This document shows, in pieces, positions 7,419 to 18,719 of a stretch of 18,719 bases of DNA. The notes below the pieces were generated by a model, which was given only the letters and a program-made list of their open reading frames with translations, was not told the origin of the DNA and did no database searches. Position 1 is the first letter of the stretch, and each line of letters opens with the position of its first letter. Source of the DNA: Verrucomicrobiota bacterium (GTDB lineage Bacteria; Verrucomicrobiota; Verrucomicrobiia; Chthoniobacterales; UBA6821); assembly GCA_008932965.1 (NCBI GenBank), contig WBXG01000034.1:1-18719 (forward strand). Direction: 5' to 3'. The position numbers and the translations under genes are program-made.

Positions 7419-7463
7419 ATAGAGGGAATTTTGAGTTTATCACTTTCATCCCTATTTTTTTTT
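7419..7463 (+). terminator. weak terminator-like element after purC
   Basis: Imperfect stem ATAGAGGGA (7419-7427) / TCCCTAT (7449-7455) with a 2-nt bulge and a 21-nt loop, followed by a T9 run (7455-7463). The stem is poor and only the T-run is striking. Confidence 0.25.
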
Positions 7464-8376
7464 GCTCAGCTATTTTTCCATTCCTGTGAATTCTTTCCTA
7501 GAAACATTCCTCCTCTATTTGGCCACGGAGCGTGGTCTTTCAACGAACTACCAACTCTCCACACGAGCCTCCTTGGAGCGGTTTTTTTCTTGGCTTACAC
7601 AACATACAACCATCACAGAATTGAGTTCTATCACACCTCAACATCTCCATGATTTTTTACATGGTGAAAAAGAGCGTGGACTTGCCTCCACTTCACTTAA
7701 ATTGGAAGTGGTTGCCTTGCGTGTTTTTTTTCGTTTTCTCTCTGCTCGTAAGATTCTCTTAAGTGATCCTGCGGAAAAATTGCCACTTCCTAAGCTTCCT
7801 CATGCATTGCCTCATCCACTCGATCCAGAGAGTGTCCAAAAACTGTTGGCAGCACCACAAGGTCACACTCCTCTGGAAATACGCGATCGTGGACTGCTTG
7901 AACTCCTCTATGCCTGCGGACTTCGTATTTCTGAACTTTGCACGGTACGTTTGGAAAATATCGATTTAGAAGAGGGAATTATTCGTGTTACTGGTAAAGG
8001 AGACAAAACCCGACTTGTTCCCATTGGGCAGGCAGCTATTACTGCAGTTCAAGAGTACCTCTCTTTAGCACGCCCGAAGCTCCTCTCTCCAAAATCGGGA
8101 GCAGCATTATTTCTCTCGGTGCGCGGACATCCACTGACACCAGCTCGTATTTGGCAACTTGTTTCCAAATATGCGAAGCAGGCAGGTCTTGAGAAAGCCA
8201 TACATCCACATCAGCTAAGACACTCCTTTGCCACCCATCTCCTGGCAGGAGGGGCAGATCTTCGAATCATTCAGGAGATGCTCGGTCATGCGAGCATTGC
8301 CACTACTCAAATCTACACAGAGGTCGATCGAAGCCAGCTTAAAAAAATCCACCAACAATTTCATCCTCGCGGGTAG
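7462..8376 (+). CDS. site-specific tyrosine recombinase, XerC/XerD family
   Basis: N-terminal SAM-like block FLLYLATERGLSTNY. Catalytic region contains ELLYACGLRISEL, HPHQLRHSFATHLLAGGADLRIIQEMLGHASIATTQIYTEV (R-H-R-Y residues). The start is uncertain: TTG 7462 is formed by the end of the T9 run, and GTG 7486 (MNSFLETF...) is an alternative. Confidence 0.85.
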   Translation: MLSYFSIPVNSFLETFLLYLATERGLSTNYQLSTRASLERFFSWLTQHTTITELSSITPQHLHDFLHGEKERGLASTSLKLEVVALRVFFRFLSARKILLSDPAEKLPLPKLPHALPHPLDPESVQKLLAAPQGHTPLEIRDRGLLELLYACGLRISELCTVRLENIDLEEGIIRVTGKGDKTRLVPIGQAAITAVQEYLSLARPKLLSPKSGAALFLSVRGHPLTPARIWQLVSKYAKQAGLEKAIHPHQLRHSFATHLLAGGADLRIIQEMLGHASIATTQIYTEVDRSQLKKIHQQFHPRG

Positions 8377-9633: not shown

Positions 9634-10173
9634 TTACTTCCACCAGATTCCATCTGAGGGGAGAGGTAGTGCAGCATTAGATTCAAAGATAGGAGGGTCA
9701 GACCAGGTTTTGGAGTAAGGAGGATTGGAGAACATATGCGTAATGTCATAGGGGTCGATTTCTTGACCAGCAAAGGGACCTTGATTTGGAGAAATGATAT
9801 AATAGAAATAAGTATTTTCAAATGTTCTCTGCTCCAAAACCCTTTTGAGAGTCACCACGGTTCCTTTATGTAAGACTCCCTCTAAGGTGACATGATTATT
9901 TTTAGAGCCGATATATTTATCATCGACTATTTCACTTAGGCCATAAGCAAAATTTCCAAGATTATGCGTCGTTCCCAAACATAATTTGCATGGGGAAGAG
10001 AGATAGGAATGCTCTCCATAGTCATTGAAGTAGTAGATATAAAAATCTTGCTGCAGAACAAATTGCTTACCAATGGCCTCTCGGTAAGGTTTTTTTTTGC
10101 TCAGATCGATCGTGCAGGAGGTTAGAGCACAACCCAGGAAGATCACAATAACTCTTAAAATACATCTTTTCAT
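9634..10173 (-). CDS. small secreted lipoprotein; candidate cognate immunity protein of the upstream Rhs toxin tip
   Basis: 179-aa ORF whose ATG lies 17 nt after the rhs stop, with GGGGGA upstream. Signal peptide MKRCILRVIVIFLGCALTSC has lipobox L-T-S-C (Cys20). I recognise no family motif. The immunity role is inferred from position only. Confidence 0.6.
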   Translation of the reverse strand: MKRCILRVIVIFLGCALTSCTIDLSKKKPYREAIGKQFVLQQDFYIYYFNDYGEHSYLSSPCKLCLGTTHNLGNFAYGLSEIVDDKYIGSKNNHVTLEGVLHKGTVVTLKRVLEQRTFENTYFYYIISPNQGPFAGQEIDPYDITHMFSNPPYSKTWSDPPIFESNAALPLPSDGIWWK

Positions 10174-10190
10174 GATCTCTAGTCCCCCAC

Positions 10191-13100
10191 TTAATGCTGT
10201 ATTAAAAAGGGAAGGTTCCTTTGGAAGGAGTGATTTCCTAAAACATCGAAAAAGTAATTATCTGTTTCTAAGGTGCTATCCCATTTTTTAAAGTGACTAC
10301 TTGGAAACAATATTGAAATCAGATCGAACCGATTGCGTACATTGGTGACACTTTTAAAACCTACCTCATCTTTTTCCATATAGCGCTGGGGATTAAGCCC
10401 GATATACTCAAAATGAGCTTTTGCACTAGGTGTCATGTAAGGAGATGCATTGTTCACTACCACAGAACCATTACTATAGGCAAAGGCTTTTCCTCCATTA
10501 TTGTGATTCACAATATCTGCAAAATAGAGGGAGCGAAGATCGATAAAGCCAAGCTGTTCATAGAAGGCCCTTGGGATATCTTTCCAGCCACTACCATAGT
10601 TATTGATACGGAGTACAGCATGTTTATCGAGTCCTAACGAAGTGGCTATGGAATATGCATTTTTTTGTGCACGCAGAGCCTTTGTAAAAATTCCATTAAT
10701 GCTCATGATTCGGTCTTGATTAGAGGTCTCTTGGAGGGCTTGATTTCTATCTTTTAAAAAATCGGGATTATTTAAATCCCCATCAACATAACTGAGCTCC
10801 ATTCCTAAAATTGTGAATAAAATATTTTTCAGGCTTAAGCTTGGATTATTCATATCATGAACGATGTTCGTGGCATTTTGATACTCCATATCACTAAGGA
10901 GTCCAAGTTCCCTCCCCTTCTCCACACACCTTCCATCCGAATCCAGCCCATTCACCGGATCGCCGTTGCAGTAATCATATAAACTCAAGCTTGCATCATG
11001 CCCGAGGGGGTCTGGGGATAAGAACCTCCCACTCTTAGGTTCATAATACCGAGCCCCCAACGAGTAGAACCCAGTCCAGTCGAGGTAACGACCACGCCAT
11101 TGAGGAACCAGATCAGCATTGACGCTGGAGCCTGGCATCGCTCCGTAACCTCCTAAAACGTTCCCCCAAGGAGAAAAGCCAACATCAGTTGTGATCCCTA
11201 ACGCATCTCCAAAGAAGTTATTAACGACTCCGTGAACTTGGCCAGAGGCTTCTAAAAGGGTTGCTTCGAGTCCTCCTATTCCTTGCGCTCCGCCGTAGGT
11301 GCCACTCCGATCAGGGCCAAAAAGGTTCCAAGTGCGACCAAAATTATCATGACCGAGTTCTAAAAACTCATATTCGGGGTCATAATAATAGGTGAGTTTG
11401 AGTGGGGTAGAGCTTTCTTGGGTGCCAGTGGCATCGCTGTAATGAGTCTGAAGGCGCCTTCCAAAGCCATCATAGATGGTAGTCCAATTGTAGCCTTGGT
11501 TCTTTTCATTACGTTTTTCTACACGCACAAGCCTTCCAAAGCTATCCCAAGTGAGTGACTGAGTTGTACTCTTTTCTATGGAGCGACTCGTAACTTCTCC
11601 AAGGCCGTCATAGCCTATATTCCAGGGGTAGTAGTACCAGCCACTAGAGTAATCGGTATCACGTGTGGGCTGATCAAAACTATTTTTGGCTTGAATGACA
11701 TCGCCGGTAGAACCCTCTAAGTTGAGTCCTGTGGGACTTACCGAGGAGGAGACTCTTACTCCTAAATCGTCGAAGGCATAATGAGCAGTATGTGTTCCAA
11801 TAGGAAATACACTTGGATTGGCAGATTCCATCAGGGTGAAGGGCTCCTGAATCAATCGACCATGATCATCATACTCGTAGTTGCGTGTTTCATTTTGAGT
11901 GCCCACGATGCTATAGCTAGTGAGTTTGTGATCTGATCTCCAGGATAAATTTTCAGTGGATGCATCCGGGAGTTTTGTGCGGGTGATATTTCCAAAACCA
12001 TCCCGGGTAAGTTCCGTAGAGCCGGAGGGAGTTTGCTTGGTAAGAAGAAGTCCATGATCCCCATACGCATAGGAGCAAGTCCCCAGGAGGCTTTCTGATC
12101 CAGTGAGTAGTCCAAGTGCATTGTAGGAAAAATGATAGTCTGGTCCTTTTGTATCATGATTCCATTTAAGTTCTGTGCGGTTCCCTGACGTATCCCAAGT
12201 TTGACTCCAGGAGGAGATAACCTCTCCGTTAAGGGAGGTCGACTCACTGGTTAAATGACCTTCGGGGTCATACTCCCTCGAAACCAATGTCGAGGGACCT
12301 GTGGAGGTCGTGGTATAACCTTGAGCTACTGAAGTAAGTAGGCCCCGTGGGTCGTAGGTATAGGTGGTGTTTTGATTTTGCTCTGGGATTTTAGAGCCAC
12401 TGGAGTTGATAGAGGTAGGATGTCCCCAGCCATCGTAGGAAAGTGAAGTCGTAAAACCACGTGGGTCGGTGATAGAGGAGAGGAGTCCATGAGCATAGGC
12501 ATAGGTATGATTACGGGTCGTGCTTGGGTTGCTTCCAGTGCTTCCAACCAAGGCATCACTTACTTTTTGACCTGCTTTGTCGTAAGAATGTGTTTCAATA
12601 AGCCCTTCGGGCATGGTCCGTTTGAGGATTTCTCCTGCAGGATTACGTTCGTAGGTAACCGAGCTATTACTTCCACTATCGCCGTAGGGAAGGACTTCAG
12701 TTTCAATCTGGTTGAGCGCATTGTAAATCCAGTGACGTTGAAGACCACTCTCATCGCGTGACCAATAGAGGTTTCCATTGGGGTCATAGGCATTCATTTG
12801 GAAGGCTCCATTGGGGTGGGTGATTAAAAGTGGATGCCCTTGCAAGTTTGTATAGGTGGTGGTTGTGATGGCGTTACTTCCAGTGCCAAGGGTTGTGGTC
12901 ACACTTTGATGATCACCGGAGTATTGATTGCTCTCATTATAAGCCACACTTCCATCGGCATTAAATAAGGTAGTGAGTACCACTCTTCCAATCCCATCTA
13001 AAAAGGTATTTTGCCATTCTCCTTTGCCATTGACCCAGCTTATGCAGCCTGGTTTGTAAAGGTATGATTTTTCTGAAAGGGGTCCTGCTTCGCTTTTAAC

Positions 13101-16100
13101 TCGACTTAGTCCATCGTAGCTATAATTCCACGTGCTTCCGGCAAGATCGGTTTTGGAGGTGAGGTTGCCTCGTCCATCATGGCTCTCAGAAGTACTCCCA
13201 AGGTTCTTTCCAGAGGTATCGGTAAAGGTACGGGTGATGCTGTTACCTTGGTAGGTTGTTTTACAGATCGTTCCATTGGGGAGGGTTTCCTGTACAAGAC
13301 GTCCTGCTAAGTCGTAGCGGTAGCTACTCGTCGTTCCATCGGCATGGGAGGCTGATAAGATTTGACCTAGTGCGTTGTAGTTGTAATTTTCACTTCCACC
13401 TAAAATGGTGGTGTGGGTGGCCACGTTGCCTCCTGGCTCATAGGTGAAGGATTCGCTTGCTGCCCCGTCGCCCAAGGAACGTGAAAGCATGTTACTAAGG
13501 GTATCGTAGGTCATGGTTGTTTTATGACCGTTAGGGTCGGTGATCGAGGTGCAGTTGCCAAGCAGGTCGTAGCCATATTCTGTGGCTGCTATTCCATTAC
13601 TTGTGACTCCTTTTCCATCAGTACTAGCAGCGCTAAGCCAGGTGCCTTTGTGAAGAAGGTGTCCACCTCGATCGTAGTCGTAGTAGGTGTAATCGACGGG
13701 GTTGAAGCGGGCTCCTTGTTCCCATTCGAGTTCTCCATTCCAATTGTAGTACCAGCCATGCCAGTCAACCGGCTTGTTATCGGTGCCGAAGGTTTCTTCA
13801 AAGGTGCGGCGGCCAAAAGCATCATAAGAATATTTTTTTAAGATTCCTCGCGAGTCGGTTTCAGAGACGATTTCTCCACGGCGGTTGGTGGTGATCGTCG
13901 TTTTAACTTCTGGATCCTTGCTTCCTGTGCTCTTGGTGATGGAGGTTAGGAACCCGTGGGTGTCGTAGCTGGTGCTGGTGGAAGAACCATCAATGCTTAC
14001 CAAGGTAGGAAGTCCAAAATTGCCGTAGTTGAGTATGGTGGAGCTCACGGTTTTCCCGTCTGAGGTTTTGACAATGCTCGTGGGATTGAAAGGATGACTT
14101 GAATCGCTATAGCTGTAACTTGTTGAGTTACCAACTGGATCAGTGATAGAAGTCACTATGTTGTTTCCGTTGTAGGTCAATGTTGTTTTGGCTATTTCGT
14201 TGCTTCCACTTCCAGTAATTTTGCCGCTTAGGGCGCGACTTGTGAGGTTACCTTGGTTGTCGTAGGTGAAATTTGTGACAAGGCCACGTTTGTTGGTAGA
14301 GCTGTTGAGTACTCGAACGATAACGTCTTTAGACCAGGTTTGAGTAATCCACTCTTGAGTAGTGGTTGGATTGATTCCGCTACCAGTAGCAGGGTAGGTA
14401 ATTTTACTAATTTGGCTACCTGCAATCGTGTAGGTTGTTATGTTACCACTTGCATCTTTGACGCTGGTGGTGCCATTAATCGTATTGTCACTGTTGGTAT
14501 AGGTAACGTTGTAGGTAAAGGTGGCACTTGTAGTTGGTGTTGGACTCACTCCTACAGTGGAAGCTTGAGTGACAACACGTCGCTCAGCGTCGTAGCTGTT
14601 TTGTAAGATGCGGCCGTTGGGATTGGTTTCTTGAGTAAGGAGGTGAGTTCCTTTTTGATATCTGTAGGTAATGACCGAATTGTCCGGCAATGTCACTTTG
14701 ACGAGGTTGCCTTCTTTATCATAGCTGTAGAGGAGCCGACGACCATCGTTAGAAAACGCTTCTATAATGTGAGCATACACGTCGTAGTGAAAATGGATAT
14801 TGTTTCCGTTGTTAGAAGTGACGGCACTCAGTTGCCCGTAGTCATTGGCTTTGTTGTTGGTACCATAAGTGAATGTGTAGCTGTTTCCTTGATTATCTCG
14901 CCATGAATCGAGGTAAGGACGGGTTCGGGTGATTTCGGGAGATCCTAAAACAGGAAATGATTTTGTGGCAAAGGTTCTGATATTTCCATTTGATCCTTTG
15001 AGAATGTAGGATCCATCAGCAGTTTTGCTGATCACGTTATTGAAGAGGTTTTGGCTTGGACCAGGTGTGCCATCGTTGGCATTGATTAAATCAGGATTGT
15101 CTGAGGCTAGTGGCTTCCAGTTTTTTTGATCTGCATTGTAGTGATAAGCAATAACCGATCCATCCATCTCAGCTGCGTAGATCATGCTTGCTGGCGTGGT
15201 CTCATTTCCATCGGCAGAGAGCATGAGGTAAGGAAAGGTACCCAACTTCCATCCACCACCTAGGTTATTATCGCTCAAATTCTGTGATCCGTAGGTGCGG
15301 CGTAGTTCCAGTGGCATAGGACCATTGAGTTGGAGATCAAGTGCGTTTACATAAAATTCTCCATTTACCACACTCACCGGATCCATCACATAGGAGAGGA
15401 GTTTTCCGTAGTAAGAGGGAGTACCTATGAATCCTATGTTTGCTACCTCTTTTTTTAAAATAGCTATTTGCGCTGGAGGTAGAGGAGTGGAGGGCTGTTG
15501 GTTGGGTATGTTAGTTCCACTTCCTGGTTGAGTAGGCGGAGTCGTGTTTGATGGTGGAGGTAGAGGAGTGAAGGGCTGTTGGTTGGGTATGTTAGTTCCA
15601 CTTCCTGGTTGAGTAGGCGGAGTCGTGCTTGATGGTGGAGTTGCAGGAGAATTTGTGTTCGATGTAGGGTCTCCACCCTTGTATTGATTCTGAATCTGCT
15701 TCAGTGCCTGATCCATCTGTACTTTGTAGATCCAATCATTAAGTTGTTTGTTAAGATCATTAAGTTGTTTGTTAAAATCATTGTTCTCATCAGGATTGAA
15801 GGAGGAGATGGGAGTGGTAGAGCCTCCGTAGCCGCCGTTATCAATACTATGGGAATCAGAAATTAGAGCTCCAATAGAATCTTGTGATATAGTGAAGGCC
15901 CCCATGCCTGTATAAGGCTTCCCTTGTTGGCCAGGAGCAGTGACAGGGGTTTGGTTGATGATGGCAATGTTTGTCTTTTTTCCTGCATCTGCTTCTTGAG
16001 TGCCAGGACGAACAAAAAGATCTAAGATAGCTTGAAAAAGGCCGTATCGAATTGCCCAAGCTGCAAGAGAAGCAGTAATGGTATTTAAGTTGGATGATAT

Positions 16101-18719
16101 TTGATAATTTTTATTTATTTCGTCATTGCAATTATAGAGCATGAGGAAGGAAATGTTTTTTCCAGGAGTGGTAGCAATCGCTTTTTCAGGAGTCCAGCCC
16201 TGAGCAATATCGAGTAGTCGCACTGTGGAAATAGCACTCTTTTGATTAAAAAACTCATTAATAATGCGATGTTCTTGAGAAGAGGCTTCTAGGAGAAGAA
16301 GCTTTTGACAATCTAACATTACTGCTGGAGATGCTCCCGATTCACTATGAAAACTATTGTTACCAATACTGACATCTTTGTGAAAAAACATATCTACTCG
16401 TGGATAGACCAAATTAAAATCGAGCTTCCCTTTGTTCATAGTGGTGACAGGTGAACCATTGGCATTCCGTTCAGGGCTTAATTTTGCTAGTCCCTCAGAT
16501 CGTGTGGTAACAATATGATTTTTTGTCAGATTTTCTAATTCTTGTTGAAATTGGCTGCAGTAGCCGTAGTAATATTTACCCATGAGCTGGAGAATCTGTC
16601 CTGTGGCTATTTCGGGATCAATAGGAAATTGAGGATCTGCTTTGCGTTGATTTTCATAATAAACATATTTTTGCCATTCAAAGTCCTTCATCTTTTCGCT
16701 CACGCGTCCATAGTTAAGCGCCAAAGCAGCCATATCTCCTTTTTGTAATGGCCGCTCTTGAGTGATAGCAATGCTTTCATTAACGCCAGGAAATTGGTTG
16801 AAGTAAGTCATTTTTGTCAGATCTACCTGTTGGTGGTGCTTTGTGATGATTTGGTAGGAAAGATAATTATCACTTGGAGTAAGAGTCGCACTGATTTTTT
16901 GAGGAGTTAACAAACTACCTGTGTCCGGGTTCGTACCCTGATTGAATGTATGCGAGGTGCTTTCTTTGTTTCCTGAGCCACTATCGTAGGCTTCTAGAGA
17001 CAGTGTTATCGTGTAGTTTGCTGTCCCTGGAATAATTTGATGGGAAAGTAAAAGCCGTCGATCGTGCAGATCGGCAAAATGCATGGTACCTGTTTGTAGT
17101 AAGAGTGGATTAGTAGTGTCACTAGCTCCCTTGCCATTGCGATTACTAAAAACTTTGATTTCAATGGTATCAAACATTTTTTCATCCAATGTAGAAACAA
17201 CATTACTACTAGTAATGAGTGGGGTTTGCCAAGGCCGTGGAAAGTCGTTCCAGCTGGCGTAATCATGGAATTGATTTGCAAATTTAATTCCCACATCATC
17301 CAGATTGAGATTGTTTTTTTTGAGCTGCTCTTCTGCATAAAGTGGGAAAAGCGTTCCTGGATTATCTTCGCTTAAAATATCAGGATCATTTGTGTTCCAG
17401 GGGTTGCGAATGACAGGGTCGTTATAGAGATATTTTAAAATCCACTTGGTTGCTGTGTTATAATCATTTGGAAAATAGTTCCAAAGGTCTCGTCCTTCGA
17501 TCACTTTTGTATCTTTAATCCATGGAAAAAGATGAATCCATTTTCCATCTATATAAGCTGTTACCCATGGGTAGTTTACTGGAATAAGTTCAGGCACTGG
17601 TACCGGTCCCAGGAATGTCATTGTTCCTCGAAGCTGCGTGTGAAGCATCTTGCTGAGCTGTTCATCGAACATGAGTGTTTTATCATGCTCAGGAAAAACG
17701 TAAGCAGCAGGGACTCCAGCTTTGCGAAGTAAATAAATCAAGAGCCCACATTGCTCGATAGGCGATCCTTGACCTTCCATGTAGGTTGCCAAGGCGTCAC
17801 GCATGATTCCTTGGGAATTAATCGAAAAAGGGGAGCTATTTTCCGTCGTGTTAAATCCGACTGCATCGGTAAGTTCAATTTCGTTTTGAACATAGTTAGC
17901 AAGTGCCAATGGGTCTTTTCCTTTTTCCTCAATAAGTTTGTCGAGTTCAGGATGAGTTTTAACCTCGGGACTAGTGTCAACTTTTGTATATTGATCTGGC
18001 TTAAGGGAGATTAAATTATCTTGAACTGGCTTGGAATGGTGAATGAGCTCATCCACGCTTTTTCCCTCAAACTCACTAGGAAGAGCTTTTCCTTGAAAAT
18101 GGGGTAGTGTCAGTAAGGTCGTACTCCAGGGAGCTAGATCGTCGAAATCGAGTGTATAACTCAAATTACAAGCAGAGCCACTCTTATCCTCTTCTTGAGC
18201 CATATCTACTATTTGACCATTAAGTAAAACTATTCCTTTCATGCTTACTTTATAAAAAAAGTTAGCGTTGTCTGCTTTGCAGGTAATCAATAAAGGATAT
18301 AATGTCTCCTGTCCCCAGATATCAGATGATAATGCTGCAGCCACATATTGAAGTTGCATTTCAAAATGCAGAGGCTTCCCATTAATGGTTTCTGCAATGG
18401 TAAATGTTTTGGAAGTAGCATGTTTCATAAGATTTTCCCATTCATTTACTTTAGGCAAGGAATAAGGGACAACAAACACACTCTTAACATTAGTATTTCC
18501 GTTTACAAAACTCTCTTTATCGTAAACTTCTATTTGCATGTCGATATTCCCTATTTTAGTAAAATCTTCTCCTCCTGACGCAATAGCAAACGAGTAAGAT
18601 TGCTTTGGATAAAGAGGTGTTCCTCCACTACTACTTCCAAAGGCAACAAAAGGAGGTTGGTCTCCAATCGCAGTCGAGTTAATTTTAGGAAGGGTATTAA
18701 CCAGAGCATAACTTATTAC
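10191..18719 (-). CDS. giant Rhs/YD-repeat polymorphic toxin, partial (N-terminus beyond the right window edge)
   Basis: The ORF track gives 2782 aa from ATG 18539. My translation of 18540-18719 in the same frame has no stop (VISYALVNTLPKINSTAIGDQPPFVAFGSSSGGTPLYPKQSYSFAIASGGEDFTKIGNID-MQIEV...), so at least 2842 codons are visible. There are dozens of YD repeats (YSYDKEGNL, FTYDNQGNL, YGYDLLGNC, YRYDLAGRL, YEYDDHGRL...). The Rhs N-terminal plug motif DPVSVVNGEFYVNALDLQLNGPMPLELRRTYGS and the core end GARYYEPKSGRFLSPDPLG...YDYCNGDPVNGLDSDGR are both present. Confidence 0.95.
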   Translation of the reverse strand, partial: VISYALVNTLPKINSTAIGDQPPFVAFGSSSGGTPLYPKQSYSFAIASGGEDFTKIGNIDMQIEVYDKESFVNGNTNVKSVFVVPYSLPKVNEWENLMKHATSKTFTIAETINGKPLHFEMQLQYVAAALSSDIWGQETLYPLLITCKADNANFFYKVSMKGIVLLNGQIVDMAQEEDKSGSACNLSYTLDFDDLAPWSTTLLTLPHFQGKALPSEFEGKSVDELIHHSKPVQDNLISLKPDQYTKVDTSPEVKTHPELDKLIEEKGKDPLALANYVQNEIELTDAVGFNTTENSSPFSINSQGIMRDALATYMEGQGSPIEQCGLLIYLLRKAGVPAAYVFPEHDKTLMFDEQLSKMLHTQLRGTMTFLGPVPVPELIPVNYPWVTAYIDGKWIHLFPWIKDTKVIEGRDLWNYFPNDYNTATKWILKYLYNDPVIRNPWNTNDPDILSEDNPGTLFPLYAEEQLKKNNLNLDDVGIKFANQFHDYASWNDFPRPWQTPLITSSNVVSTLDEKMFDTIEIKVFSNRNGKGASDTTNPLLLQTGTMHFADLHDRRLLLSHQIIPGTANYTITLSLEAYDSGSGNKESTSHTFNQGTNPDTGSLLTPQKISATLTPSDNYLSYQIITKHHQQVDLTKMTYFNQFPGVNESIAITQERPLQKGDMAALALNYGRVSEKMKDFEWQKYVYYENQRKADPQFPIDPEIATGQILQLMGKYYYGYCSQFQQELENLTKNHIVTTRSEGLAKLSPERNANGSPVTTMNKGKLDFNLVYPRVDMFFHKDVSIGNNSFHSESGASPAVMLDCQKLLLLEASSQEHRIINEFFNQKSAISTVRLLDIAQGWTPEKAIATTPGKNISFLMLYNCNDEINKNYQISSNLNTITASLAAWAIRYGLFQAILDLFVRPGTQEADAGKKTNIAIINQTPVTAPGQQGKPYTGMGAFTISQDSIGALISDSHSIDNGGYGGSTTPISSFNPDENNDFNKQLNDLNKQLNDWIYKVQMDQALKQIQNQYKGGDPTSNTNSPATPPSSTTPPTQPGSGTNIPNQQPFTPLPPPSNTTPPTQPGSGTNIPNQQPSTPLPPAQIAILKKEVANIGFIGTPSYYGKLLSYVMDPVSVVNGEFYVNALDLQLNGPMPLELRRTYGSQNLSDNNLGGGWKLGTFPYLMLSADGNETTPASMIYAAEMDGSVIAYHYNADQKNWKPLASDNPDLINANDGTPGPSQNLFNNVISKTADGSYILKGSNGNIRTFATKSFPVLGSPEITRTRPYLDSWRDNQGNSYTFTYGTNNKANDYGQLSAVTSNNGNNIHFHYDVYAHIIEAFSNDGRRLLYSYDKEGNLVKVTLPDNSVITYRYQKGTHLLTQETNPNGRILQNSYDAERRVVTQASTVGVSPTPTTSATFTYNVTYTNSDNTINGTTSVKDASGNITTYTIAGSQISKITYPATGSGINPTTTQEWITQTWSKDVIVRVLNSSTNKRGLVTNFTYDNQGNLTSRALSGKITGSGSNEIAKTTLTYNGNNIVTSITDPVGNSTSYSYSDSSHPFNPTSIVKTSDGKTVSSTILNYGNFGLPTLVSIDGSSTSTSYDTHGFLTSITKSTGSKDPEVKTTITTNRRGEIVSETDSRGILKKYSYDAFGRRTFEETFGTDNKPVDWHGWYYNWNGELEWEQGARFNPVDYTYYDYDRGGHLLHKGTWLSAASTDGKGVTSNGIAATEYGYDLLGNCTSITDPNGHKTTMTYDTLSNMLSRSLGDGAASESFTYEPGGNVATHTTILGGSENYNYNALGQILSASHADGTTSSYRYDLAGRLVQETLPNGTICKTTYQGNSITRTFTDTSGKNLGSTSESHDGRGNLTSKTDLAGSTWNYSYDGLSRVKSEAGPLSEKSYLYKPGCISWVNGKGEWQNTFLDGIGRVVLTTLFNADGSVAYNESNQYSGDHQSVTTTLGTGSNAITTTTYTNLQGHPLLITHPNGAFQMNAYDPNGNLYWSRDESGLQRHWIYNALNQIETEVLPYGDSGSNSSVTYERNPAGEILKRTMPEGLIETHSYDKAGQKVSDALVGSTGSNPSTTRNHTYAYAHGLLSSITDPRGFTTSLSYDGWGHPTSINSSGSKIPEQNQNTTYTYDPRGLLTSVAQGYTTTSTGPSTLVSREYDPEGHLTSESTSLNGEVISSWSQTWDTSGNRTELKWNHDTKGPDYHFSYNALGLLTGSESLLGTCSYAYGDHGLLLTKQTPSGSTELTRDGFGNITRTKLPDASTENLSWRSDHKLTSYSIVGTQNETRNYEYDDHGRLIQEPFTLMESANPSVFPIGTHTAHYAFDDLGVRVSSSVSPTGLNLEGSTGDVIQAKNSFDQPTRDTDYSSGWYYYPWNIGYDGLGEVTSRSIEKSTTQSLTWDSFGRLVRVEKRNEKNQGYNWTTIYDGFGRRLQTHYSDATGTQESSTPLKLTYYYDPEYEFLELGHDNFGRTWNLFGPDRSGTYGGAQGIGGLEATLLEASGQVHGVVNNFFGDALGITTDVGFSPWGNVLGGYGAMPGSSVNADLVPQWRGRYLDWTGFYSLGARYYEPKSGRFLSPDPLGHDASLSLYDYCNGDPVNGLDSDGRCVEKGRELGLLSDMEYQNATNIVHDMNNPSLSLKNILFTILGMELSYVDGDLNNPDFLKDRNQALQETSNQDRIMSINGIFTKALRAQKNAYSIATSLGLDKHAVLRINNYGSGWKDIPRAFYEQLGFIDLRSLYFADIVNHNNGGKAFAYSNGSVVVNNASPYMTPSAKAHFEYIGLNPQRYMEKDEVGFKSVTNVRNRFDLISILFPSSHFKKWDSTLETDNYFFDVLGNHSFQRNLPFLIQH
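10194..10928 (-). other. C-terminal variable toxin tip (245 aa) of the Rhs protein, function unassigned
   Basis: This is everything after the ...DPVNGLDSDGR core-end motif (CVEKGRELG...FLIQH). It has lower GC than the YD core. Motifs IMSINGI, LRINNYGSG, AFAYSNGS, RFDLIS and GNHSF occur in Ser-Asp-His order. Confidence 0.6.
10929..15383 (-). other. Rhs shell: N-terminal plug motif, YD-repeat array and Rhs repeat-associated core domain
   Basis: The region starts with DPVSVVNGEF (D codon at 15381-15383). It ends with WRGRYLDWTGFYSLGARYYEPKSGRFLSPDPLGHDASLSLYDYCNGDPVNGLDSDGR (R codon at 10929-10931). Confidence 0.85.
15475..15640 (-). repeat. 81-bp tandem duplication (2 copies, 79/81 identical, plus 4 nt of a third) encoding a Pro/Thr-rich linker
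   Basis: Copy 1 (15475-15555) and copy 2 (15556-15636) differ at two positions. They are in frame (27 aa each), encoding TPPTQPGSGTNIPNQQP(F/S)TPLPP... Confidence 0.9.
15735..15783 (-). repeat. 21-bp tandem repeat (about 2.3 copies) encoding NDFNKQL-NDLNKQL-NDW
   Basis: ATCATTAAGTTGTTTGTTAAG at 15735-15755 and ATCATTAAGTTGTTTGTTAAA at 15756-15776, then ATCATTG. In frame with 7-aa units. Confidence 0.85.
17511..17915 (-). other. transglutaminase-like (papain-fold) segment in the N-terminal module of the Rhs protein
   Basis: DPLALANYVQNEIELTD ... MRDALATYMEGQGSPIEQCGLLIYLLRKAGVPAAYVF ... NYPWVTAYIDGKWIHLFPWIKD matches the transglutaminase-core layout (G-x-C...LLRA-GIPAR ... HAWxEVY-x-GxW-DPT). 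The Cys codon is at 17748-17750. Tyr and Phe sit where His and Asp are expected. Confidence 0.5.

Follow-up and report, generated by a model that had tools for sequence, protein, structure and literature searches.

The window analysed here, a stretch of 18,719 nucleotides, is the complete 18,719-bp contig WBXG01000034.1 of a Verrucomicrobia metagenome-assembled genome (MAG; locus tags DVB29_). Its right-hand part is occupied by the minus-strand gene of a giant Rhs polymorphic toxin, which is followed by the gene of a small lipoprotein, a candidate immunity protein (Table 1); the left flank is made up of housekeeping genes (a gene for an FGE-sulfatase-domain protein, cmk, plsC, an ABC transporter gene, queF, queC, a gene for a TPR protein, purC, xerC/D and fabI). 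The initial annotation had described the Rhs gene as a single frame of at least 2842 codons that almost certainly runs past position 18719, and both statements hold. Between 18719 and its end at 10191-10193 the frame contains no other stop, a length of 2842 codons. The first ATG called by the tool that predicted the open reading frames (ORFs) lies at 18539, and the frame stays open from there to the window edge. This ATG is ruled out as the real start: the 60 codons 5' of it are conserved coding sequence, since homologues of the region preceding the Rhs shell can be aligned from residue 1-2 of the window protein onward, with identities of 44-55%.

A complete 5' end was found for the orthologue on a syntenic contig, L093 (28 kb), which was reached via 90%-cluster relatives, whereas the exact immunity protein led only to shorter contigs. 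L093 and the window share the gene order immunity gene, fabI, xerC/D, purC, TPR, queC, queF, ABC transporter, plsC and cmk, and L093 carries a complete Rhs gene for a protein of 3053 amino acids (L093:822-9983). The two Rhs proteins are 90.4% identical, with window aa 1-2842 corresponding to L093 aa 260-3053, and the DNA identity is about 92%. Because the orthologue extends 259 codons further upstream, the window gene is 5'-incomplete by about 259 codons. A start at a TTG with an AGGAAGG Shine-Dalgarno-like sequence would reduce this number to about 221. The window sequence is the 3' 93% of a chromosomal gene of about 3050 codons of a Verrucomicrobia bacterium. The part beyond the window edge comprises, in the orthologue, a 21-residue hydrophobic segment (WYEICGLVLLFALSTNTILFA/TEDGG) as probable export signal, a Big_7 bacterial immunoglobulin (Ig) domain (E=2.9e-7, exceeding the Pfam cut-off), which is also present in the homologues P0003 and P0019, and a lead-in of about 90 aa to the conserved module with which the window protein begins.

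Table 1 Features of the Rhs toxin gene and of the adjacent lipoprotein gene in the window, in the order of translation (aa, residues of the Rhs protein encoded within the window)
Feature	Position	Strand	Evidence or remark
Rhs polymorphic toxin gene	10191..18719	(-)	5'-truncated by contig end; 2842 of ~3053 codons visible; stop 10191-10193
Beta-sandwich, first part of conserved pre-shell module, aa 1-195	18135..18719	(-)	AlphaFold2 model, consensus of alignment A1, N-terminus of orthologue
Transglutaminase-like core with degenerate triad, aa 250-470	17310..17972	(-)	Sub-threshold Pfam match, Foldseek, invariant columns
Second half of module (beta-rich domains, helical hairpin, alpha/beta domain), aa 471-990	15750..17309	(-)	AlphaFold2 secondary structure
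Pro/Thr-rich linker, aa 1015-1088	15456..15677	(-)	Contains 81-bp tandem repeat
DUF6531, Rhs N-terminal plug (DPVSVVNGEF...), aa 1113-1159	15243..15383	(-)	Pfam; aligns to plug region of solved T6SS Rhs structures
YD-repeat shell (cocoon), aa 1160-2516	11172..15242	(-)	RHS_repeat, YD_repeat_2x
Rhs-associated core, SPDPLGH ... DPVNGLDSDGR motif, aa 2517-2596	10932..11171	(-)	TIGR03696, motif positions
Toxic tip, putative minimal alpha/beta-hydrolase, aa 2598-2842	10194..10928	(-)	AlphaFold2, Foldseek, invariant residues, GC content
Lipoprotein of 179 aa (MKRCILRVIVIFLGCALTS/C), candidate periplasmic immunity protein	9634..10173	(-)	Starts 18 nt after Rhs stop

Searches against Pfam and NCBIfam confirmed the order of domains in which the initial annotation had described a giant modular toxin cut by the window edge. 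The shell is recognized by RHS_repeat (PF05593, E=4.8e-71) and YD_repeat_2x (TIGR01643, E=1.5e-58), the plug by DUF6531 (PF20148, E=1e-10, exceeding the cut-off) and the core by Rhs_assc_core (TIGR03696, E=4.9e-16), and the best sequence matches in the PDB are Rhs shells associated with type VI secretion systems (T6SS; entries 8qjc, 8h8a, 7q97 and 8uxt). As in the family at large, the core motif is presumed to act as an aspartyl autoprotease and to mark the cleavage site of the tip. Neither Pfam nor NCBIfam gave a match for aa 1-270, aa 400-1110 and the last 245 residues. The linker in front of the plug contains an 81-bp tandem repeat (2.1 copies, 97% identity, at 15474-15640), and a second in-frame repeat of 21 bp (2.3 copies, encoding NKQLNDL, at 15734-15782) lies just upstream of the linker in the protein. 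A blastn alignment of the window with L093 is interrupted at the linker repeats and again at about 14290-14395; because the alignment breaks there, the length of the linker may vary between strains.

The region upstream of the linker forms a module with a transglutaminase (TGase)-like fold that lacks the catalytic histidine and aspartate. The TGase-like nature, which the initial annotation had suspected for one segment, is supported by a sub-threshold Pfam match and by structure prediction and Foldseek searches of aa 1-990, within the region upstream of DPVSVVNGEF. The AlphaFold2 (AF2) model (pTM 0.81, mean pLDDT 78.7) places a beta-sandwich at about aa 25-195, an alpha+beta core at about 250-470, a beta-rich part at about 480-670, a long helical hairpin at aa 675-731 and then beta and alpha/beta elements up to aa ~960, and Foldseek returned 3isr with a probability of 1.0 as well as TG3, TG2 and FXIII at E~1e-4. 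Canonical transglutaminase-like proteins carry the motifs G-x-C, H-A-W and L-D-P. In an alignment of 30 family members of the module (A1), conservation peaks at GSPxEQC(A/G)LLIYLLRKAGVPAAYV ... NYPWV ... HLFPWIK: the cysteine (Cys324) is retained in at least 90% of the sequences and is surrounded by the invariant residues E315, E322, Q323, R307 and K402, whereas the canonical histidine and aspartate positions are occupied by an invariant tyrosine (Tyr383) and an invariant phenylalanine (Phe398) in all 30 sequences. The second half of the module, about 520 residues without a match in Pfam or NCBIfam, is conserved among the homologues together with the TGase-like core. A search of PDB sequences with the module profile matched only Rhs shells and the Ig and FN3 domains contributed by homologues, but no transglutaminases. 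An ancestry among phage receptor-binding proteins is unsupported, the search of the BFVD viral library having given no meaningful match.

At the opposite end of the protein, the tip is predicted to be a small Ser-Asp-His alpha/beta-hydrolase of the esterase/lipase type. Only three relatives of the last 245 residues were retrieved by the word index, whereas an exhaustive profile search yielded 208 cluster representatives, many of which are located C-terminally in proteins of 2000-3700 aa; two full-length relatives have the same overall architecture as the window protein (P0048, 3234 aa, 55% identical; P0052, 2995 aa, 48% identical). In an alignment of 29 tip sequences, G79, N110, D117, S152 and D202 are invariant and N78, G154 and H233 occur in at least 90%, which gives the consensus SINGIxT ... 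NxTH ... GD ... AHSQGT ... GGQ ... DxVP ... HxF. The AF2 model of the tip (pLDDT 91.5, pTM 0.89) positions N78-G79 right after a strand, as expected for an oxyanion loop, S152 between a strand and a helix in the manner of a nucleophile elbow, D202 after the next-but-one strand and H233 in the loop preceding the last helix; numbered along the whole protein, the residues of the proposed triad are Ser2749 (elbow AYSNG), Asp2799 and His2830, with N2675-G2676 as oxyanion residues. Foldseek related the model to cutinases, PETases, fungal lipase B, LipA of B. subtilis and the thioesterase TesA at probabilities of 0.95-1.0. The tip has no match in Pfam, NCBIfam or PDB sequences to any Tle or other lipase family; the profile touched the GYSQG elbow of a cutinase in the PDB at a sub-significant E=0.05. 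The motifs of the tip follow each other as N2675-G2676, D2714, R2717, AYS2749NG (family consensus AHSQG), D2799 and H2830. This is the motif order of the 'Tox-AB hydrolase2' signature (NG, [DE], [KR], HSxG, D, H), which has been listed in verrucomicrobial RHS toxins (Zhang et al. 2012; PMC3482391), the comparison resting on the published signature. Whereas the immunity protein listed for Tox-AB hydrolase2 is Imm-SUKH, the neighbour of the window tip is a lipoprotein.

This 179-aa lipoprotein (lipobox ...ALTS/C) is likely to be a periplasmic immunity protein. It is 39% identical (E=3e-38) to the product of the ORF that immediately follows the gene of P0048, a protein with a tip of the same family, and it has no match in Pfam, in NCBIfam or among PDB sequences. 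The pairing of an alpha/beta-hydrolase with a lipoprotein recalls the Tle lipase effectors with their periplasmic Tli lipoprotein immunity proteins. Over the tip and the immunity gene (9634-10928), the GC content is 0.38-0.39, whereas it reaches 0.47 in the Rhs core and shell and 0.45 in the housekeeping flank, which is consistent with a recombined or swapped cassette. In another assembly (L091:1-5275), no intact giant gene stands in front of the same immunity gene (P0203), its place being taken by a string of short ORFs (of 133-176 aa) and an RHS-repeat fragment of 497 aa; the locus may have degenerated or may represent an orphan array of tips and immunity genes.

A survey limited to one genome per species detected at least 146 stretches encoding the pre-shell module, nearly all of them labelled Verrucomicrobiota and often several per genome, with Chthoniobacterales, Limisphaerales, Terrimicrobiaceae and Verrucomicrobium sp. 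BvORR034 among the carriers. Eighty loci were fetched for detailed inspection, and 74 of these had a usable module match. A Rhs shell follows the module in 31 of the 32 loci with at least 6 kb of downstream DNA. The N-terminal ORF is closed within the locus in 67 cases, and 62 of these (93%) have a signal-peptide-like hydrophobic start according to a hydropathy heuristic; clear signal peptides are present in, among others, the homologues P0001, P0052 and P0014. The sequence upstream of the position equivalent to window residue 1 measures 70-1905 aa (median 453) and carries RCC1 propellers, Ig and Calx-beta domains; TSP3 domains also occur in homologues. A long pre-shell region is therefore normal in this verrucomicrobial family, contrary to the initial annotation, in which its length had been regarded as far larger than usual.

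Two further observations concern the family as a whole. Contigs labelled as MAGs of Francisellaceae, Bifidobacteriaceae/Bifidobacterium, Alphaproteobacteria, Pseudomonadota or Binatia carry a module of the verrucomicrobial type (L021, L028, L043, L045, L048, L051, L056, L072, L078, L025, L082 and L088), and these labels probably reflect mis-binning or mislabelling, not a true phyletic spread. In several loci (L004:10001-20550, L003:10001-19278), two or more overlapping or abutting gene calls take the place of a single giant gene, with the break often near the linker or inside the shell, which may be due to assembly frameshifts or to genuine pseudogenization; most database proteins of 700-1700 aa in which only the module seems to be present are fragments of this kind.

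The architecture of the window protein corresponds to a class that was defined computationally more than a decade ago. Zhang et al. (2012; PMC3482391) described toxins composed of a signal peptide, an inactive transglutaminase, sometimes a bacterial Ig domain, RHS repeats and a variable toxin, placed 'Inactive transglutaminase' under the T2SS/Sec-dependent route (T2SS, type II secretion system) in their Table 1, noted TGase domains with lost catalytic residues and included RHS plus transglutaminase architectures from Verrucomicrobia in their toxin table. The window family shares with this class a predicted signal peptide or transmembrane helix, the TGase domain with lost catalytic residues in a position N-terminal to the RHS array, the occasional Ig domain (adjacent to the module in L093), the RHS array itself, the variable C-terminal toxin, the occurrence in Verrucomicrobia and the lack of a dedicated secretion partner. 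As far as a comparison by description allows, it differs in that a single TGase domain is replaced by a unit of about 1050 aa (beta-sandwich, TGase-like core and some 520 further residues) plus a repetitive Pro/Thr linker. Current concepts need no change, since the prediction of the class, including the assignment to Sec, dates from 2012; the window gene is a fresh member of this class and shows no new delivery system. The genes treated in a 2025 paper that mentions 'inactive transglutaminase' as well as 'Rhs' are unrelated.

Our preferred interpretation, to which we assign a probability of about 0.7, is that of a Sec-exported Rhs toxin of the 'inactive transglutaminase' class with a hydrolase tip and a lipoprotein immunity protein. 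The protein would be exported through Sec and would move on to the cell surface or the medium via a general route, T2SS or another one. The Ig domain and the TGase-like module may serve as a non-catalytic binding or anchoring device that is held off the cocoon by the flexible Pro/Thr linker, while the cocoon would retain the tip until the aspartyl autoprotease motif frees it. Once released, the tip would attack an ester-linked component of a competitor's envelope (such as a phospholipid or a lipoprotein) from the periplasmic side, and the lipoprotein would neutralize the tip in the periplasm of the producer and its siblings, also during the toxin's own transit. A close parallel is WapA of Bacillus subtilis and Streptococcus suis, likewise a Sec-exported Rhs cocoon with polymorphic tips, adjacent immunity genes and no T6SS or Tc partner; WapA, however, belongs to monoderm bacteria and has wall-binding repeats, whereas the window protein, whose phylum is diderm, carries a TGase-like module in their place and also has an outer membrane to pass. 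The pair of tip and lipoprotein would add a candidate family of envelope-targeting esterases, which has about 200 cluster representatives and lacks a model in Pfam.

Several points weigh against this interpretation. The 5' end is absent from the window, so that the export signal is taken from the orthologue. There, 30-70 residues separate the hydrophobic segment from the possible starts, and it could be a signal anchor instead of a cleaved peptide; the signal-peptide calls in the homologues come from a simple hydropathy method. Transit through T2SS would involve a folded cocoon of about 1500 aa. The Transglut_core match (aa 272-397, E=0.003-0.008) stays under the Pfam cut-off, the Foldseek matches to transglutaminases have low TM-scores, and the strong conservation of Cys324 and several charged residues would be compatible with some activity. 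The fold matches of the tip have E-values of 3e-3 or weaker, and in the literature no later experimental work on the inactive-transglutaminase Rhs class was found.

A more far-reaching proposal is that the Ig and TGase-like module of about 1050 aa is a self-contained device for receptor binding and outer-membrane crossing, by which a Sec-exported Rhs cage would enter its target without T6SS, Tc or contact-dependent inhibition (CDI) machinery. We regard this as tentative and rather unlikely. If true, it would constitute a new route of Rhs delivery into neighbouring diderm cells, with a logic like that of the receptor-binding domains of CdiA or colicins. The mechanism of Rhs toxins is understood only in connection with T6SS, a Tc translocator or the Gram-positive wall. 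The family may thus serve as a model for how the Sec-exported Rhs cage of a diderm crosses two outer membranes and for what a degenerate TGase module binds, and at least one carrier is in culture (Verrucomicrobium sp. BvORR034, L064). The initial annotation had considered the delivery route open and a novel N-terminal trafficking module conceivable. For the first step this no longer applies, given the Sec-type signals in L093 and in 62 of 67 homologues and the class description of 2012.

Alternatively, the protein might not be actively secreted across the outer membrane at all, but stay in the periplasm or anchored in the inner membrane and be transferred by lysis, vesicles or membrane exchange, or it might be aimed at eukaryotic grazers or hosts. 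Both variants, which together we consider improbable, have some appeal: being far from the start, the hydrophobic segment of L093 may act as a signal anchor, the size of the cocoon is considerable for T2SS, and the adhesin-like RCC1, Ig, Calx-beta and TSP3 domains of the homologues resemble the teneurin-like ectodomains of eukaryotic cell-surface proteins. Close paralogues, however, have ordinary cleavable signal peptides, and a bacterial (self or kin) target is favoured because the gene of the cognate lipoprotein is conserved next to the tip.

Nor do we give much credence, and if anything slightly less, to the idea that the TGase-like module is active through a non-canonical site consisting of Cys324 and other invariant residues, be it as a processing protease, an envelope cross-linker or a second toxic activity. 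It is true that the strongest conservation of the module falls around this widely retained cysteine and its invariant charged and polar neighbours, but in every aligned sequence the two other catalytic positions are invariantly Tyr and Phe, the module lies outside the cocoon at the end opposite to the tip, and Zhang et al. (2012) also concluded that such domains are inactive.

That the protein is the cargo of a T6SS whose PAAR, VgrG or chaperone partners are encoded elsewhere in the genome appears very improbable. Most characterized Rhs toxins of Gram-negative bacteria are T6SS effectors, the closest solved shells belong to this group, and the window protein has the DUF6531 plug, the YD cocoon, the core autoprotease motif and the encapsulated tip with immunity gene in common with RhsA of Pseudomonas protegens, Tse15 and the Rhs proteins of Salmonella and Photorhabdus. 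These effectors, however, carry PAAR, prePAAR or clade domains, lack a Sec signal and are encoded next to vgrG or eag, none of which was found for the window protein, whereas the orthologue and about 93% of the complete homologues have Sec-type signals. Searches with Pfam and NCBIfam profiles for PAAR, prePAAR, VgrG (including VgrG-binding), Hcp and Tc domains gave no match in the window, in the N-terminus of L093 (aa 1-393) or in the upstream neighbour of L093; because this neighbour is a divergently oriented gene for a FAD-linked oxidase, no delivery partner stands upstream of the orthologue. No T6SS or Tc gene was present around four homologues with precomputed Pfam annotation (L003-L007), and when the ORFs flanking the 80 loci were all clustered, the recurrent families included no such component either. 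The lack of a visible PAAR, VgrG or Tc partner that the initial annotation had reported for the window thus extends to about 85 flanks, the search having covered the flanks of the loci and not whole genomes. Finally, a Tc-type toxin of the TcB-TcC kind that depends on a TcA translocator can practically be dismissed: a YD cocoon with C-terminal autoprotease is common to TcB-TcC and the gene is very large, but the window protein has no match to SpvB, TcdB_mid or a beta-propeller gatekeeper, the flanks searched around the window, around L093 and around related loci contain no TcA-sized gene, and an immunity gene of bacterial type is present.

The neighbourhood of the related loci offers a few additional features. 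In 41 of the 74 loci with a usable module match, all of them distant relatives, the Rhs gene is directly preceded by a co-oriented ORF of about 140-160 aa, the stop codon of which touches or overlaps the start of the Rhs gene (loci within L034-L088, e.g. L068:8172-8600 and L040:9239-9676, as well as L003:8581-9003). The product of this small ORF has a signal peptide, a beta-rich domain of about 90 aa, Asp-rich DxDGDG motifs and the conserved C-terminal sequence '...ADPNNPGxGxLxVxIxSPxNG', without a match in Pfam. As a hidden delivery partner of the window gene this small secreted protein was rejected, being absent from the clade of the window including the L093 orthologue; it may be an operon partner within its own subgroup.

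The families that recur in the flanks of the 80 loci are response regulators, XRE regulators, ParA, TraG/TrwB coupling proteins and RCC1 proteins. A subgroup of loci is flanked by genes for TraG/TrwB coupling proteins, ParA, XRE and response regulators (L003:21001-23491; L057:3679-5172; L063:2046-2744), which suggests that some Rhs genes of the family are carried on integrative conjugative elements. Unlike these, the window copy is set among conserved housekeeping genes, and scans of the window with Rfam and for tRNA and tmRNA genes were empty. The window does encode a XerC/D-type tyrosine recombinase (7462-8376), 1.8 kb from the Rhs/immunity pair; because its position is kept in all syntenic contigs (L089-L095), it looks like a housekeeping Xer protein and not like a marker of a mobile element.

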